Sequence record: PQ871103.1
Length of the DNA stretch: 64,000 nucleotides
Reading direction: 5' to 3' (one strand)
Origin: Escherichia phage vB_Eco_ZCEC15
In this document: positions 4,453 to 18,454 of the stretch, piece by piece
Numbering within the stretch: position 1 is the stretch's first letter
How the letters are laid out: each line of letters begins with the position of its first letter
The notes under the pieces: model-generated
The model's database searches: none
Told to the model about the DNA's origin: nothing
Seen by the model: only the letters and a program-made list of their open reading frames with translations
Made by a program: the position numbers and the translations under genes

Positions 4453-5295
4453 TTAATCAACTGCTATTGGATGAATAGCATTAAACTTATGAAATGCTTC
4501 TGATTTTTCTTTGCGCGAAACACACATGCGAAGAACCTTTAATGGCTCGTCTTCTTCACCCAACGATTTTCTCTTTTCAATATTCGATGTTTTCCAACGA
4601 GCTTGCTCTGGAAACTCTCTATTGATTTGCTCAAGAGCTCTATTATGTTTTGAATTACTACGAATTGAACTGCACCCGCCCGGAGCCTGTGCTTTTCCAG
4701 ATACAACCAGATATTTGAACAGGGCCAAATGCGGATAACCTTGATTAATTAAATTGAGAAATGCATACATATCTTCGCATAAATCAATTTTTCCATACCC
4801 AATTTGTTCTGTTGTAAGTTTTCCGAGGTCATACCATGTATTCGTGAATCCATATGAATTTTCACGATAATTACCCCAAGATGAAGTAATTTTAAAAATT
4901 GGTAAACGAGCATGACCATGATAATACCCGCAATCCATGGCATCTTCAACGTATTGAATCAATTCATAGAACTGTTCACGAGTTAACTGATTAATTTTAT
5001 CTACGCAGCGACGATCATCTTTCTTTCGCATTGAACTCATACGAATAGTAGTATCATCATCAATCATCCAAATTCGTTGACCTGCATACATATCAGTAAT
5101 TGCTTTACGAGTACCGGCAATTCCGTTTACATCATCAGGAATAGTTATAATTTTAGCTCTAGACCCATAGGCATCATAATAAGCTTTTTCTTCATGTTCA
5201 CGCACTACAATATGGGGTTCATAATCAGTCGGAAACATATCAAGGGCAGAAACTGCCCCGACACGCTGATAACTTGGAATTACGAATTGAATCAT
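4453..5295 (-). CDS. GT-A fold glycosyltransferase, 280 aa (candidate beta-glucosyl-HMC-alpha-glucosyltransferase of T2/T6 type)
   Basis: N-terminal VIPSYQRV and DxD motif IWMIDDD typical of GT-A enzymes; occupies the locus of T4 beta-gt but is unrelated in sequence. Confidence 0.6.
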   Translation of the reverse strand: MIQFVIPSYQRVGAVSALDMFPTDYEPHIVVREHEEKAYYDAYGSRAKIITIPDDVNGIAGTRKAITDMYAGQRIWMIDDDTTIRMSSMRKKDDRRCVDKINQLTREQFYELIQYVEDAMDCGYYHGHARLPIFKITSSWGNYRENSYGFTNTWYDLGKLTTEQIGYGKIDLCEDMYAFLNLINQGYPHLALFKYLVVSGKAQAPGGCSSIRSNSKHNRALEQINREFPEQARWKTSNIEKRKSLGEEDEPLKVLRMCVSRKEKSEAFHKFNAIHPIAVD

Positions 5296-5933
5296 TTAAG
5301 TGCCTTACATTTGTCAAAATGGTATCTTGTCATATTTGGCCCACGTCCTTTTAGTCCGCAATGCGGACATATTTTTTCTATCAAATTATGAGGTTTTCCT
5401 TTACGATTTTTAGACATCGTTTCTTTAATTATTTTAGCTTTTTCTGCGCCAAAAATTTCTTCATAAGTTTTACCAGAATTTTCCTTTGCTCGATTTATAA
5501 TTCCATATGCCTGCTCATTTTTACCATACATTGGATTACCTTCGCCTTTCATTCTTTTAGAATGATCAGGACGCTTGATTCCACGAAAGGCATTTCCGCA
5601 CTTATATCTTTCTTCTGGAGATAGTTTTTTACCGTACATTCCATTTAATTTGCCTGGAAAACTTCCTCCCCATGCTTCATTCTTTAAATTATATGAATCC
5701 GGACAATTAGCAGCATCTAAACAAGTTAAAATAATTTCTTCAACCTGTCTAAACATTGGTCCTTCATATAATATTTCTTTATTAAAGGATTTTATTCCAT
5801 ATTTCTTTTTAGCATGTTGCCAAACTACACCCGAACCATCATAATTTGGGTTGTGACCATCATGACTTCCTATATACCACTTTTTAGTTTTAGGATGTTT
5901 ATACTTATAAACATGTGGCACATTTACTTCCAT
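5292..5933 (-). CDS. GIY-YIG homing endonuclease (seg-like), 213 aa, C-terminal zinc finger
   Basis: VYKY...WYIGS GIY-YIG motif, NUMOD3-like G-K-x-S/P-E repeats, C-terminal CPHCG...RYHFDKC. Confidence 0.75.
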   Translation of the reverse strand: MEVNVPHVYKYKHPKTKKWYIGSHDGHNPNYDGSGVVWQHAKKKYGIKSFNKEILYEGPMFRQVEEIILTCLDAANCPDSYNLKNEAWGGSFPGKLNGMYGKKLSPEERYKCGNAFRGIKRPDHSKRMKGEGNPMYGKNEQAYGIINRAKENSGKTYEEIFGAEKAKIIKETMSKNRKGKPHNLIEKICPHCGLKGRGPNMTRYHFDKCKALK

Positions 5934-6664
5934 TTTCCAGTATAATCCTTTTTAGCAATATGAGTTTCACCAGTGTTCCACCAATGGTCAACTAAATAAA
6001 ACTGATTTTCGTACACATGAAGACTTCCAACGTTCCATATAATAGAACCTGCTTTATATTGCCGCGATGGGTCGCCTGCATTCAAATCAGATACTAATTT
6101 ATCTAGTACGTATTTTTGCCATGCATAATCATTACGATAGCCTGCCCAGCAGTCATTGCTTCTCATATTAACAACTGCATTGACTTTCTTGTCACGAATC
6201 AGATACTGTACGGTATTCGTACACATGAAATCTGACATACCATCTTTATTGTAGTCAAACTGCATAGATGGACGAGTATAAATCATGATACCACGTCGAG
6301 AATCAGGATTTTGACCAAGTTCAGCTAAACACATATCATACTGGGCATAGTTATCTTCTGACCAGATGGCCCAACCATAATTCGAGTTAATTTCGCCTTT
6401 AGAAGATGCTACCTGCTGCCAAATCTTCGGTGTTTCACCCGGAATATCTTTAACAAACAAACTTTTAGATTTATACCATTCAAGTTCACGTTGAATGTAT
6501 TCATCATTAAGAGCGCCAAAAATAAACGGTTCATCTGCTACAAATGATGCGCCAATAATTTCAATAGTTTTAACGCCAGTTTTATCAACTACGAAATCTT
6601 TTTCCTTTAATGCAAGCCCCAAATGAAGACGGATTTCTTCAACTGTCATAGAGTCACTAATCAT
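5924..6664 (-). CDS. 42: dCMP hydroxymethylase gp42, 246 aa
   Basis: Sequence and length match T4 gp42. Confidence 0.95.
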   Translation of the reverse strand: MISDSMTVEEIRLHLGLALKEKDFVVDKTGVKTIEIIGASFVADEPFIFGALNDEYIQRELEWYKSKSLFVKDIPGETPKIWQQVASSKGEINSNYGWAIWSEDNYAQYDMCLAELGQNPDSRRGIMIYTRPSMQFDYNKDGMSDFMCTNTVQYLIRDKKVNAVVNMRSNDCWAGYRNDYAWQKYVLDKLVSDLNAGDPSRQYKAGSIIWNVGSLHVYENQFYLVDHWWNTGETHIAKKDYTGKWK

Positions 6665-6817
6665 TTAAACCTCAATTGATACATTCATATTTAACTTGTA
6701 ACAGTAATAAACCCCAACCTATAATAAGTGTCGGAATCATACAAGGAACCGTTACGCTATAGTATATACTTATTATAATCATCAAGATTAAAAGCAATAC
6801 TGCTAAAATTTTGCTTT

Positions 6818-7069
6818 TCATTCCTTCTCTCTGATGATAATTACTTGATTTGGTTGTGCGGATTTTTTAGTTTCACCCGCAATTGACCAAATAAATGTAA
6901 TAAACCAACCAATAATTGACCAATTAAACAGTAAAGATGTGAAAAAGATTCCTACTGTCGATTTTGACCCGCGCATCAAGGCGATGAACCATGGAAGCAT
7001 GTATATAATAATAGCCAACACGCCTGAAACTAAAACCATAAAAATTGAACCTGCTACTAAAGTTTCCAT
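6818..7069 (-). CDS. imm: Imm superinfection immunity membrane protein, 83 aa
   Basis: Two hydrophobic helices, 83 aa, position downstream of 43. Confidence 0.8.
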   Translation of the reverse strand: METLVAGSIFMVLVSGVLAIIIYMLPWFIALMRGSKSTVGIFFTSLLFNWSIIGWFITFIWSIAGETKKSAQPNQVIIIREKE

Positions 7070-12589: not shown

Positions 12590-12605
12590 AAGGGCCGAAG
12601 CCCTT
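12590..12605 (-). repeat. UUCG-tetraloop hairpin (plus strand aagggccgaagccctt) between 45 and 44
   Basis: Inverted repeat with cgaa loop; one of six related copies. Confidence 0.5.
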
Positions 12606-12607
12606 TA

Positions 12608-13294
12608 TTAAAAGTCGTGGGTAGAATCAGCTTCAAGAGCTACTACATAATTCGCGTGTTCACCTTCAAATTTAGCAGCACCTTGTTTACCTTTTGCCCA
12701 GAGCAGAAGTTTATAATTTCCTGGTTGCATTTTCATATTTGCCATATTGATAATGAAATTAAATGTATTTTCACCATCATAATCACCAAGAGTCAAAGAA
12801 TATTTAACACGGGTCAAAGCAGAATCTTCTACTTTATTAAAACCGTTAATTACGATTTTACCTTCTTTTACTGTGATAGCAATTGTATCAATCTGCAGAC
12901 CACGAGATACACGCAACAGTTGTTGAAGGTCTTCAGCTTTAATTTCAGTAACAACAGATGCTACCGGGAATGGAATTGGTTTATTAGGAGCCACTACTGT
13001 GCTCGGATCAGCTGCTGGCCAAAAAATTGTTGAACGAGCATCAGCAATTTTAATATTTCCATCTTCTGACTGGGAAATTTCTGCATCGTCATTAACTAGG
13101 GACAGAATACCGAGAAAACCGTTCAAATCGTAAATTGCTACATCAAAATCAATAGTGTCAGAAATATTTGCTTCCGCATAAGTTGTACCATTAACTGCGC
13201 GAGTCATAATAAATTGACCAGATTTAAGCATAATACCAGAGTTAATAGTAGCGAAATTTTTAAGCAGAGCAGTAGTATCTTTAGACAGTTTCAT
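12608..13294 (-). CDS. 45: sliding clamp gp45, 228 aa
   Basis: Sequence and length match T4 gp45. Confidence 0.95.
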   Translation of the reverse strand: MKLSKDTTALLKNFATINSGIMLKSGQFIMTRAVNGTTYAEANISDTIDFDVAIYDLNGFLGILSLVNDDAEISQSEDGNIKIADARSTIFWPAADPSTVVAPNKPIPFPVASVVTEIKAEDLQQLLRVSRGLQIDTIAITVKEGKIVINGFNKVEDSALTRVKYSLTLGDYDGENTFNFIINMANMKMQPGNYKLLLWAKGKQGAAKFEGEHANYVVALEADSTHDF

Positions 13295-13349
13295 GTAATT
13301 TCCTTCAATTCAAATGAGATTTAATTTTATAACTAATTTAATAAAGCAA

Positions 13350-13739
13350 TTAACGATTAAAATCAGCAGCAATTGTTTCAGCAACAATTTGAGCAGCAAC
13401 AATTAGACGTTCATCTGCATTACCGCAATAATCGTCTTCAAGGCGTTCACCGCATGAAGTCATAATAAATTTAGCACCAGCATTTAAAGATTCTGTCGTA
13501 TGTTTGCGCATTAGTTCAATCCATTTATTACTTACTTCACGATCGATAGCTTCATAATACGCATGACGAGCAGGTGCAGATTTAATTTTGTTCTGAATAA
13601 CTTCCATTGCGTTATCAGAAAGAGACAAAACCCATGCTCGACGAATTTTATTTTGGTTTTGCGGATTTGATTCAGAACGCACGTGTTTTGGCTGAATATC
13701 TTTTACATCAACAGTATAATTCACAGTAATTTTAGTCAT
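13350..13739 (-). CDS. rpbA: RpbA RNA polymerase-binding protein, 129 aa
   Basis: Length and position upstream of 45 as in T4. Confidence 0.65.
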
Positions 13740-13748
13740 AATACACCT

Positions 13749-13940
13749 TTAGTCATAATAATCAGTAACAGTCCAAGCTTCATTCCTGTTGGACATTATT
13801 TTCGTATATTCTGATTTAAATGCATTCTTAAGCATAGATTCAGTAACTATATGCTCTTCATTAGAAAAATTATTTCTCAGAATATATCGTTTTATTTCAG
13901 GAATAGTTAATAGATGCTGTCCAGTTGAATATTCTGCCAC
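13749..13940 (-). CDS. hypothetical protein, 63 aa (45.2 position)
   Basis: ORF track; position. Confidence 0.55.
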   Translation of the reverse strand: MAEYSTGQHLLTIPEIKRYILRNNFSNEEHIVTESMLKNAFKSEYTKIMSNRNEAWTVTDYYD

Positions 13941-13950
13941 AGTTCCTCCG

Positions 13951-13958
13951 TATAAATA
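13951..13958 (+). promoter_or_regulatory. late promoter TATAAATA (plus strand) upstream of HNH endonuclease gene
   Basis: Exact TATAAATA about 33 nt upstream of ATG at 13992, with AAGGA SD between. Confidence 0.5.
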
Positions 13959-13991
13959 TGTTTATCACTCGCTGTATCAAAAGGATATGTT

Positions 13992-14708
13992 ATGAATTAT
14001 AAACTAATTTATGAAAAGTTAATCTCTAATGCTAAATCTCGAAAACTTGATTGCTATACTGAATCTCATCACATTATACCACGCTGTTTAAATGGTAGCG
14101 ATGATGCTTCAAACTTAGTAGATTTAACACCAGAAGAGCACTATGTAGCTCATCAACTTTTAGTAAAAATTTATCCTTCTGAACCAAAATTAGTCTATGC
14201 TGCTAACATGATGACAGTTTCTACGAAATACGCTAAACGTAACAATAAAACTTTCGGCTGGATTCGTCGTAAACTCTGGGAAATAGAAAAGAATAAAGAG
14301 TTCTCCCAAGAGACACGAAAGAAAATGTCCGACGCAGTAGCTAATAAAGCAAGACTAACTTGTCCACATTGCGGTAAGTCTGGATTAAGCGGGAATATGA
14401 ATCGATGGCATTTTGATAACTGCCCAAATCATCCCAATCCTAAAGTTAGACCGCCAATGTCTAAAGAACACAGAAATAATATCTCAAACGGACTTAAAGC
14501 AATCGTTCTTGAAGAAACATCCTGCGAATTCTGCGGAATGATAGGCAAGAAATGCGTTATCGCAGCGCATAGAAATTTCTGCAAGAAAAATCCAAATGGA
14601 CGCAAGAAAACTGAAAAGACTGGTACTTGCGTCCATTGTGGTAAAGTTACCACTTTCGGAAATTTATCAAGATGGCATAATGATAATTGTAAATATAAAC
14701 CTAGCTAA
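13992..14708 (+). CDS. HNH homing endonuclease, 238 aa, three C-terminal zinc-finger repeats
   Basis: HNH core ESHHIIPRCLNGSDDASNLVDLTPEEHYVAH; opposite strand to flanking genes; absent from this position in T4 as I recall. Confidence 0.8.
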   Translation: MNYKLIYEKLISNAKSRKLDCYTESHHIIPRCLNGSDDASNLVDLTPEEHYVAHQLLVKIYPSEPKLVYAANMMTVSTKYAKRNNKTFGWIRRKLWEIEKNKEFSQETRKKMSDAVANKARLTCPHCGKSGLSGNMNRWHFDNCPNHPNPKVRPPMSKEHRNNISNGLKAIVLEETSCEFCGMIGKKCVIAAHRNFCKKNPNGRKKTEKTGTCVHCGKVTTFGNLSRWHNDNCKYKPS

Positions 14709-16389
14709 TCTTAGCTAAACTAAATCTACCAACTTTTTCCATTTGAATGTGCTGACCATATTCCTGTGGGTCATGGTCTTTATGCGAAATTATGAAGAAG
14801 TTGGTATCCTTCAAACCATCTAAAATTTTAGCCACATTTTTAATACCTTCAGCATCAAATGCACCGTCATACACTTCATCAAGAAATAAACAACTTATTT
14901 TAACACCTGAAACTTTTTCAGCAATATCACGCCAAGTAAATAGAAGAGCAATATCAATTCGTGCTTTTTCGCCTTGACTGAATGAAGCATAACTAAAATC
15001 TTCGCGACCACGGGATTTAATTGTCTCATTAAATTCTTCATCTAATGTAAACACATAATCCGCTTCCATTATTTTAAGATAATGGTTAATCTGCTTATTA
15101 AATAATGGAATGTACTTTTTAATAATAGCACCTTTAATACCAGAATCTTTGAGCATATCAGTCAAAATTCCTCTGTGGTATTTTTCCATTACCAAATTAG
15201 TTTTTGTCTTAACAATTTTATCAAGTTCTTCTTGAAGCAGTGCTATTTCATCAGCATGGTCAATAAACTCAGAAGATGCTTTTTCTATAGCCGCTTTAAC
15301 CTTTTTAGCTTTATCTACCGTCGTGATTAAAGATTGCTTTTTATTGCGAATATCATTCGCCAACGTCTGCTGGGTTTTAATATTATCTCGGTATTCATCA
15401 ACGAGAACTTTTAAATTATCACGATGCGTTGAAAGCTGTTCAAACGAATGCGTACATTCAGAAACTTTATCTTTAATTTTAGAAACAACTTTATCACCGG
15501 AACTTAACTGTGACAAGCAGGTTGGACATAATCCACCTTCGTGATACATATTAATGACTTTATTATACGAGTCAATTTTTGATTTAATTAAAACTGCTTC
15601 TTGACCGATTTTATTAAATGCATCAGTCGGGTCTTCATCTAAAACAATATTAACTAATCTTTCATTAGCTTTTTCTATTTCCGATTTTAGCGTTCTAGCT
15701 TCTTTTGCCAAATCATCATACATATTTTGCAGACGAGTAAGATTGTCACCCGTTAATTTTTTCTGGCGTTCAACGTTATCATTATATATTTTAATTTGTT
15801 GGATAATACTATCTTTTTTAACGTCAAGCACTTGGTTTTGTGAATTTAATTCACGTATTAGTGCTTTATTAAGCTTATCCATTTCAGCTAATGTTCCTAC
15901 CTCAAGCAGGTCTTCCACAAGCTTTCTTCGCGCAGGGGTCGACAAACCCATGAAAGGGGTATACCCTGCTGTACCAAGGACAACAATCTGCTTGAAACTG
16001 GCATATGACATTCCGATAAGCTGTTCAAATTCTGCTTGGAAATCTTTACTGCTGGCAGATTCATTAAGACGTGTACCGTTAACGGTGATTTCAAAAACGT
16101 TCGGTTTTTGTCCTCTTTTGATATAGTACTTTTTCTCATCATATTCCATCCACAGTTCAACTAAAAGTTCTTTCTTATTTGTGCTGTTTATTAATTGGCC
16201 TTTCTTTACATCACGAAATGGCTTGCCAAAAAGCCCAAATGTGATGGCTTCTAACATAGTAGACTTACCACCGCCATTTCGTCCAGTAATAAGAGTTTTT
16301 TGAACCTTATCTAATTGAATGTCAATAGGATTTCCACCTACTGACATTATATTTTGATACCTAACTCGGTTTAGTTTAAAATTCTTCAC
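14701..16389 (-). CDS. 46: recombination nuclease subunit gp46 (Rad50/SbcC-like), 562 aa
   Basis: Walker A GRNGGGKS, CPTC zinc hook, C-terminal signature/Walker B. Confidence 0.95.
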   Translation of the reverse strand: MKNFKLNRVRYQNIMSVGGNPIDIQLDKVQKTLITGRNGGGKSTMLEAITFGLFGKPFRDVKKGQLINSTNKKELLVELWMEYDEKKYYIKRGQKPNVFEITVNGTRLNESASSKDFQAEFEQLIGMSYASFKQIVVLGTAGYTPFMGLSTPARRKLVEDLLEVGTLAEMDKLNKALIRELNSQNQVLDVKKDSIIQQIKIYNDNVERQKKLTGDNLTRLQNMYDDLAKEARTLKSEIEKANERLVNIVLDEDPTDAFNKIGQEAVLIKSKIDSYNKVINMYHEGGLCPTCLSQLSSGDKVVSKIKDKVSECTHSFEQLSTHRDNLKVLVDEYRDNIKTQQTLANDIRNKKQSLITTVDKAKKVKAAIEKASSEFIDHADEIALLQEELDKIVKTKTNLVMEKYHRGILTDMLKDSGIKGAIIKKYIPLFNKQINHYLKIMEADYVFTLDEEFNETIKSRGREDFSYASFSQGEKARIDIALLFTWRDIAEKVSGVKISCLFLDEVYDGAFDAEGIKNVAKILDGLKDTNFFIISHKDHDPQEYGQHIQMEKVGRFSLAKIS

Positions 16390-16649
16390 AAAAGATTCCT
16401 TTTAATGTATCTTTTAGACCATTCTATCATATCATCATAATCTAAAAAGTATTCATCAAATTCAGCCATGCAAACAACGCCTTGTGCTGTTTTTGATGTA
16501 ATATAAATTATTCCAACATATCTAGAATCTTCTTCGGTGTAATCAATATTTGCTATGAATTCATCGTTAATGTCAAATGTCGAAAACTTCACAGTATGCA
16601 TCCTTAATACAAGATACAGCCATATCTTGTAATGATTTAGGTGTGTCAT
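16386..16649 (-). CDS. hypothetical protein (46.1 position); start uncertain
   Basis: ORF track; overlaps next ORF by 77 nt so true start is probably internal. Confidence 0.45.
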   Translation of the reverse strand: MTHLNHYKIWLYLVLRMHTVKFSTFDINDEFIANIDYTEEDSRYVGIIYITSKTAQGVVCMAEFDEYFLDYDDMIEWSKRYIKRNLL

Positions 16650-16836
16650 TATCTAAAATGTTGAAGTTAAAAGATACAGCCCAATCTGTACAGACCGTAA
16701 CCTTTTTAATACAATTATCTTCAACCTCTAACGGTTCAAACCAGTATTCAATAGTTTCTTTATGCCCAATATCATCTTTTACTTCGCATTCAAAATGCTG
16801 ACTCATCATAACATTTTTAAATTCATCAAAAGTCAT
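16573..16836 (-). CDS. hypothetical protein, 87 aa (46.2 position)
   Basis: ORF track; stop overlaps gp47 start. Confidence 0.5.
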   Translation of the reverse strand: MTFDEFKNVMMSQHFECEVKDDIGHKETIEYWFEPLEVEDNCIKKVTVCTDWAVSFNFNILDNDTPKSLQDMAVSCIKDAYCEVFDI

Positions 16837-17962: not shown

Positions 17963-18454
17963 TTATACCATTTTTTTACCTTTATTATGTGATGAAGCTT
18001 TAAATTTATTTGACCTTCCTTTTACATAACCTTTTGGAATATAAGGCAAAAAGGCAGATTTTCCTGTTAATGGATCATGTGAATGTATATTTCCTTTACA
18101 ATTATGAGAACCATATAATGGATGATTTTGTCCTTTATTATCTCTTCCAAATGAACCTTTTGGAGCAGCATATGACATATTAAAGAATAATGGATTTTTA
18201 ACTGCATCATGCAATCGTTGATAATATAACTCGCATTTAATAGCTTCTTCACGCGTATCAAATTCAGCTAAAATGCATGAATCAAATAAGTGAGGATTAT
18301 CTGAAAGCTCTTTATTATAAATTTTCTTATACTTTTTAGATAAAACTGAACCATGATATCCAGCTAAATGCCTATCTAAAGACGTAGATCCAATATAAAA
18401 AGGAGGAAGTTTATCTCCACTATATATTGTTAAATAAGTTATATATTTTTTCAT
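17963..18454 (-). CDS. GIY-YIG homing endonuclease-like protein, 163 aa
   Basis: YLTIYSG...FYIGST and FDSCILAEFDTREEAIKCELYYQ resemble the I-TevI catalytic core; NUMOD3-like repeats. Confidence 0.75.
   Translation of the reverse strand: MKKYITYLTIYSGDKLPPFYIGSTSLDRHLAGYHGSVLSKKYKKIYNKELSDNPHLFDSCILAEFDTREEAIKCELYYQRLHDAVKNPLFFNMSYAAPKGSFGRDNKGQNHPLYGSHNCKGNIHSHDPLTGKSAFLPYIPKGYVKGRSNKFKASSHNKGKKMV

Follow-up and report, generated by a model that had tools for sequence, protein, structure and literature searches.

The DNA analysed here (the window; 64,000 nt, PQ871103.1) is a segment of a Tequatrovirus (T4-like) genome, and phage SYGD1 is its best match over positions 13300-15300 (98.9% identity). 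Genes 62, 44, 45, rpbA, 45.2, 46, 46.1/46.2 and 47 follow one another in this order on the minus strand. Between 45.2 and gene 46, on the strand opposite to these neighbours, lies a free-standing gene for a Mob-like HNH homing endonuclease (HEG), as the preliminary description of the sequence had proposed. The features of the locus, in window coordinates, are the following.

13749..13940, minus strand: gene 45.2, the left neighbour, with a start codon changed by the insertion
13935..14720, no strand assigned: DNA without a counterpart in T4 by pairwise alignment, replacing a 55-bp spacer, the 45.2 start codon and the last gene 46 codons
13951..13958, plus strand: TATAAATA, an exact match to the T4-type late promoter motif, 34 nt upstream of the HEG ATG
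13981..13985, plus strand: Shine-Dalgarno sequence AAGGA, 6 nt before the HEG ATG, by direct reading of the sequence
13992..14708, plus strand: Mob-like HNH homing endonuclease gene (HEG), 238 aa, ATG start, between 45.2 and 46
14061..14153, plus strand: HNH catalytic core (E24, H26, H27, N41, H50, H54), invariant in the alignment
14361..14423, plus strand: CCHC zinc finger 1, residues 124-144, CPHCGKSGLSGNMNRWHFDNC, found by regular expression and folded as a beta-beta-alpha unit in the model
14476..14501, minus strand: TGCTTTA-N13-TATTAT, a motif resembling a MotA-type middle promoter, within the HEG and antisense to it
14523..14582, plus strand: CCHC zinc finger 2, residues 178-197, found by regular expression and in the model
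14628..14690, plus strand: CCHC zinc finger 3, residues 213-233, invariant in the family and aligning with the C-terminus of MobE
14701..16389, minus strand: gene 46, which codes for a Rad50/SbcC-like recombination nuclease subunit and is convergent with the HEG
14709..14985, minus strand: divergent 3'-terminal allele of gene 46 that is linked to the HEG (from Walker B to the H-loop, plus the C-terminus), a candidate target or immunity region

The HEG and gene 46 overlap tail-to-tail by 8 nt, and the 5' leader of the HEG (tttatca..gctgtatcaaa.aagga) is kept in its orthologues. The isolation of the gene on its strand was assessed with a size cut-off of 110 aa. In the first 58.5 kb, every further plus-strand ORF that reaches this length is nested in a longer minus-strand gene, so that at this cut-off the HEG is indeed, as had been claimed, the only plus-strand gene in 58 kb. 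That 13992..14708 might be a chance ORF was ruled out by homology and conservation.

The HEG protein belongs to PHROG 655 ('homing endonuclease', E 8.6e-69), and BLASTP aligned it end to end with MobE of T4 (35% identity, E 3e-34, residues 1-238 versus 1-231). Its HNH domain covers approximately residues 1-75 and is followed by a helical linker and then by three CCHC fingers. The HNH core expected from the first reading of the sequence is intact, with the catalytic His and Asn in place: across 34 aligned homologues, which share 35-63% identity with the query, there is no variation at E24, H26, H27, P30, N41, H50, H54, C213, C216, H229 or C233. A group II intron maturase has an HNH domain to which the HNH motif could also be aligned. 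The Pfam HNH profile (PF01844) scored 16.9 bits, under its cut-off of 21.4, and the match to NUMOD3 was faint (E 0.14). In the AlphaFold (AF2) model (mean pLDDT 90.7), residues 24-27/42-45/47-60 form a beta-beta-alpha unit, and beyond the helical linker three further beta-beta-alpha fingers coincide with the three CxxC..HxxxC motifs. Searches of the PDB by sequence and by fold returned nothing significant, HNH domains and zinc-finger arrays appearing only among the weak matches.

The three C-terminal zinc-finger repeats reported earlier were recovered by regular expression as three CCHC motifs of the form CxxC-x(10-12)-HxxxC, at the residues listed above. Finger 1 is present in the lineage that occupies the gene 46 site, and in more distant homologues fingers 1 and 2 are swapped for NUMOD3-type repeats, which is the modular design known for this class. 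Comparison of the window allele with that of RB51 gave 19 synonymous versus 5 non-synonymous codon differences, indicating that the protein is under purifying selection. The two alleles end differently, with YKPS in the window and HKH in RB51.

The same gene is annotated at the same site in RB32 (RB32ORF054w), RB33, RB51, RB68 and about 50 other Tequatrovirus records, with 97-99.5% DNA identity and 98.7-100% protein identity to the window copy. The record labels vary, from 'putative site-specific intron-like DNA endonuclease' in RB32 (2006) to 'similar to mobB' in RB51 and 'homing endonuclease' in RefSeq. In the tally of Petrov et al. (2010), RB32 has two mob-like HNH genes and RB51 has one (PMC2993671). 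The HEG thus already has the label of a putative homing endonuclease, and that 2010 inventory included it in its mob-like genes. Apart from this tally, a literature search that included the 2010 review of T4 mobile elements and the 2023 paper on HEG islands returned nothing on the HEG or its site. The same search found no functional study of the gene and no paper naming the gene, the site-specific lineage, its target or a promoter swap.

To our knowledge, MobE is the only studied member of the Mob-type HNH class. It is the free-standing HNH homing endonuclease of T4 encoded between nrdA and nrdB (Wilson and Edgell 2009, PMC2790892). MobE-dependent nicks map to a conserved stretch of nrdB that is polymorphic in mobE carriers, and activity of the protein in vitro was never obtained (PMC2790892). 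MobE and the HEG protein share the HNH core at the N-terminus and the CCHC finger at the C-terminus, and both genes are free-standing in a spacer between essential genes, sporadic in T-even phages and located beside a polymorphic stretch of a conserved gene. They differ in position (45.2/46 for the HEG, nrdA/nrdB for mobE) and in the DNA-binding part, which consists of three CCHC fingers in the HEG protein versus NUMOD3-type repeats and one finger in MobE. Moreover, the HEG runs opposite to its neighbours behind a late-promoter motif of its own, whereas mobE is promoterless and co-transcribed with nrdA (PMC2790892). The extended two-part design, with an HNH domain, a linker and DNA-binding modules, is also found in I-HmuI, the intron-encoded HNH nicking endonuclease of SPO1, which was proposed as the structural model for MobE (PMC2790892). 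Unlike the HEG, I-HmuI is encoded in an intron and lacks CCHC fingers, and it gave no significant sequence or fold match to the HEG protein in the PDB searches.

In T4, genes 45.2 and 46 are separated by a 55-bp spacer that holds no gene. The preliminary description was thus correct that T4 has nothing at this place, and most relatives also lack the HEG. In the pairwise alignment, the left flank is about 99% identical to T4 up to 13934 and homology comes back near 14721, at 63-83% identity as far as about 14985 and at about 100% from there on. The replacement affects both neighbours. Gene 45.2 starts with GTG-GCA (63 aa) in the window versus ATG (62 aa) in T4, and gp46 ends in ..GRFSLAKIS versus ..GRFTVMV because homology resumes inside the last codons of gene 46.

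The HEG has a sporadic distribution, being carried by 59 of about 526 Tequatrovirus records that match the surrounding region, including RB32, RB33, RB51 and RB68. This pattern supports the proposal that it is a mobile insertion. The 760-bp insert itself is present in 59 phage records and reaches at least 95% identity in 58 of these, and the protein is at least 95% identical in 59 records, with nearly full-length matches. The HEG alleles are mutually 97-99.5% identical. Among the IMG/VR loci that have a gp46 relative and include the junction, 1 of 30 carries the gene. At least four other T4-like lineages have diverged orthologues (42-65% identity) at this same 45.2/46 junction, likewise convergent with gene 46:

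Mosigvirus, 45.2/46 junction: HEG orthologue, 58% identity
Klebsiella phage Roth67, 45.2/46 junction: HEG orthologue, 65% identity, split into two ORFs
IMG/VR locus L022, 45.2/46 junction: HEG orthologue, 64% identity
Slopekvirus phT4A, 45.2/46 junction: HEG orthologue, 42% identity
Pseudotevenvirus EC-F1, 45.2/46 junction: HEG orthologue, 44% identity

Two of the database records deserve a comment. In Roth67 (L006, PQ657814; 2501..3235) the HEG is annotated as two ORFs of 270 and 402 nt and its translation stops after 89 aa, so that it is probably either a decaying copy or the product of a sequencing frameshift. In phage Ac3 (L040, OK040907) the HEG protein is that of RB51, while at the DNA level the identity over the HEG and gene 46 reaches only about 75-78%; the differences in the HEG are consequently all synonymous. 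Ac3 was rejected as a divergent natural allele, since an RB51-identical protein with about 75% DNA identity everywhere makes the record look recoded or back-translated.

The exact late promoter motif noted earlier in front of the gene is conserved across genera. In T4 late genes such a motif stands at -10 and is used by gp55-RNA polymerase. RB51, Klebsiella phage Roth67, a Mosigvirus and IMG/VR locus L022 all have TATAAATA at the corresponding place, so that it is kept upstream of the HEG in four of the six orthologous lineages. The Slopekvirus and Pseudotevenvirus orthologues have cTTAAATA and CCTAAATA in its place, and the empty 45.2/46 site of T4 is without it. In the window as a whole the motif is not enriched (11 matches versus 10.3 expected), so that the case for a late promoter of the HEG rests on position and conservation. 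From these, TATAAATA is considered the putative late promoter of the gene.

The insertion may also have changed the transcription of 45.2. In T4, in phage KMB22 and in loci L009 and L012, the spacer upstream of 45.2 contains TGCTTTAATTTATTAGAGTATAAT, a textbook MotA-type middle promoter. The HEG-positive Tequatroviruses are without it and have TGCTTTA-N13-TATTAT inside the HEG instead. Judging from this exchange, the antisense motif may replace the middle promoter of the T4 spacer; a genuine site would have a parallel in the nrdB middle promoter that lies within mobE of T4 (PMC2790892). A single MotA-type site within the HEG could be due to chance, about 0.04 being expected in 760 nt. Across the window, the MotA-box pattern TGCTTNA-N10-13-TANNNT was found 21 times versus 6.15 expected, with 17 of the 21 on the minus strand; this enrichment fits a dense set of real middle promoters in the early/middle gene region.

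The 3' end of gene 46 next to the HEG stands out from the rest of that gene. This patch is 63-83% identical to the HEG-less Tequatroviruses, versus 95-100% for the remainder of gene 46. Its identity is bimodal in the database: 59 records reach at least 95%, 440 lie at 80-90%, and the range of 90-95% between them is empty. The patch allele (95% or more) and the HEG are linked nearly one-to-one, as 58 of the 59 records with the former also carry the latter. The sole patch-only record, KMB22 (L041, OR539217; 2380..2900), has a T4-type empty junction and a T4-type sequence in the last 65 nt or so of gene 46, and is carrier-type from about 14770 to 14985 in window coordinates. KMB22 is a natural recombinant that has most of the patch without the HEG, an outcome that is expected if the cut lies away from the insertion point. 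Similar breaks were observed outside the Tequatroviruses. In the carrier/non-carrier pairs L007/L013 (Mosigvirus) and L022/L026, gene 46 is 97-100% identical and then falls to 43-80% up to the stop codon. The break near gene 46 nt 1460-1480 recurs in three independent carrier/non-carrier pairs.

These comparisons bear on the question of whether the gene moves or is simply inherited. In the latter case the HEG would be a domesticated or tolerated HNH gene of one Tequatrovirus subclade, vertically inherited and no longer mobile, and its link with the patch would reflect common descent. Common descent also predicts that the HEG and the patch always travel together, and the high mutual identity of the HEG alleles (97-99.5%) would suit it as well. 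However, the flanks have a history unlike that of the HEG, the closest matches of both the left (12600-13930) and the right (15400-16830) flank being mostly HEG-less phages. Likewise, the first 60 nt of gene 46 in the window are 100% identical to those of the HEG-less L009, L012 and L014, versus 75% for the HEG-positive SYGD1 and RB51. The identity breaks are sharp on both sides of a module of about 1.05 kb, made up of the HEG and the patch, and the structure of this module recurs in two other lineages. A module that is decoupled from its flanks and has a recurrent breakpoint shows the pattern of a homing cassette with a short co-converted tract, which argues against simple clade inheritance. 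Vertical inheritance is accordingly rated as rather unlikely, and the HEG, on the pattern of these sequences, is probably mobile.

A further alternative is a decaying homing endonuclease gene that is already inactive and heading for loss, at a late stage of the homing cycle. The split orthologue of Roth67 provides an example of such decay, and I-TevIII of T4 shows that relics of this kind persist (PMC2790892). In the Tequatroviruses, however, the ORF is full length in all listed records, the catalytic and zinc-binding residues are intact and the allele differences are mainly synonymous (19 versus 5), which makes decay of the window copy improbable. Even less credit is given to another primary role of the gene, either as a nuclease acting on competing phages or host DNA or through a late antisense transcript regulating gene 46. 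In its favour, a late transcript would extend into the 3' end of gene 46 as antisense RNA, a scan downstream of the HEG ORF found no terminator, and ICP1 offers examples of HEG-derived genes that serve in defence (PMC10448857). Nevertheless, the architecture of HNH domain and fingers, the full-length homology to MobE and the strict conservation of the site across genera fit site-specific homing better, and no data point to a general nuclease; such a role is therefore held to be very improbable.

Taken together, we estimate at roughly three in four the probability that the ORF belongs, as a free-standing homing endonuclease gene, to the Mob (HNH) family of T4 and to a lineage specialised for the 45.2/46 junction of T4-like phages, and that it is expressed late and homes by way of a cut in the 3' part of gene 46. 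According to this homing model, late transcription of the HEG would start at its own TATAAATA promoter and run against the direction of all of its neighbours. The three CCHC fingers would bind DNA and the N-terminal HNH domain would nick or cut the 3' part of gene 46 in an HEG-less co-infecting phage, as suggested by MobE and by the population pattern. The T4 recombination machinery would then repair the break from the carrier genome, copying the HEG together with about 270 nt of divergent gene 46, and the copied patch would presumably make the carrier allele uncuttable. The marker exclusion against related phages that the preliminary description had suggested as possible is backed indirectly by the nearly one-to-one link between the HEG and the divergent gene 46 allele, and by flanks that are closest to HEG-less phages. 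The decoupling of the module from both flanks, and KMB22 with its patch but no HEG, would also be consistent with super-Mendelian inheritance of the HEG and its flanking markers in mixed infections, as predicted for a homing endonuclease.

SegG and SegF of T4 are examples of 'intronless homing' and of localized marker exclusion. The biology predicted for the HEG resembles theirs in that a free-standing gene beside a conserved gene would cut the HEG-less allele, possibly at a distance, with co-conversion of the flanking markers. For SegG, a cut at a distance from the insertion point has been published, going by a title cited in PMC2993671. In contrast to the HEG protein, SegG and SegF are of the GIY-YIG family, not HNH, and their homing was shown experimentally.

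Since the left flank is nearly identical and the right flank is divergent, the target is probably on the gene 46 side. From the KMB22 and L012-type alleles, the carrier-specific part can be narrowed to roughly 14765-14892. Carriers and non-carriers were compared column by column, and two 20-mers emerged at which all carriers differ from a sequence conserved in the HEG-less phages:

gene 46 nt 1501-1520, opposite window positions of about 14870-14889: candidate 20-mer 1, Walker B region, weak prediction
gene 46 nt 1639-1660, opposite window positions of about 14730-14751: candidate 20-mer 2, weak prediction

Together with the divergent patch, these weak candidates are indirect evidence for a site-specific nick or double-strand break in the HEG-less allele. 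The 'CLFLDE' variant of Walker B occurs in HEG-less genera too, so it does not provide a clean target signature. Neither 20-mer is secure, on account of this variant and because KMB22 is T4-type at the second site. In addition, 33 of the first 34 residues of the patch match Roth67. To judge from this resemblance, it is equally possible that the patch is a passenger, brought in with the HEG from a Roth67-like donor, and not an immunity determinant.

The predicted target region sits in the gene for the recombination nuclease itself. A more tentative possibility is that this HNH lineage is a long-standing specialist of the 3' end of gene 46 in at least five T4-like genera, targeting the segment from Walker B to the H-loop, and that the Tequatrovirus cassette may also fit the local transcription, having removed the 45.2 middle promoter and brought an antisense replacement. 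If this were true, the lineage would target the Rad50-like nuclease on which its own homing pathway depends.

The genomes of T-even phages are mosaic owing to many homing endonuclease genes, to which the HEG adds another, and in this respect the present results are mostly confirmation. With some 59 carriers, some 470 non-carriers and a single recombinant that has only the patch, the locus is a clean natural system in which the intronless homing of a Mob-type HNH enzyme can be studied. The three-finger DNA-binding array could be of interest to nickase engineers, provided that the enzyme is active and specific.

Other putative homing endonuclease genes were observed in the window and in SYGD1. 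A 163-aa ORF at 17963..18454 on the minus strand, between gene 47 and a-gt, matches PHROG 10820 ('HNH endonuclease', E 1.6e-79); T4 has only the 46-aa gene 47.1 at this position. With this ORF and the HEG, genes 46-47 of the window are bracketed by two HNH genes, an arrangement that resembles the 'HEG islands' of ICP1. SYGD1 (L002, MW883059) carries at 6106..6960, between 46 and 47, an extra annotated 'homing endonuclease' that is absent from the window, so the content of such genes varies even among near-identical phages. A 213-aa ORF at 5292..5933 on the minus strand, between gene 42 and a glucosyltransferase gene, matches PHROG 314 ('homing endonuclease', E 1.8e-31) and, weakly, the 45.2/46 HEG family; it is a third putative HEG in the first 20 kb. 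The adjacent gene at 4453..5295 encodes a beta-glucosyl-HMC-alpha-glucosyltransferase, which suggests DNA glucosylation of the T2/T6 type.
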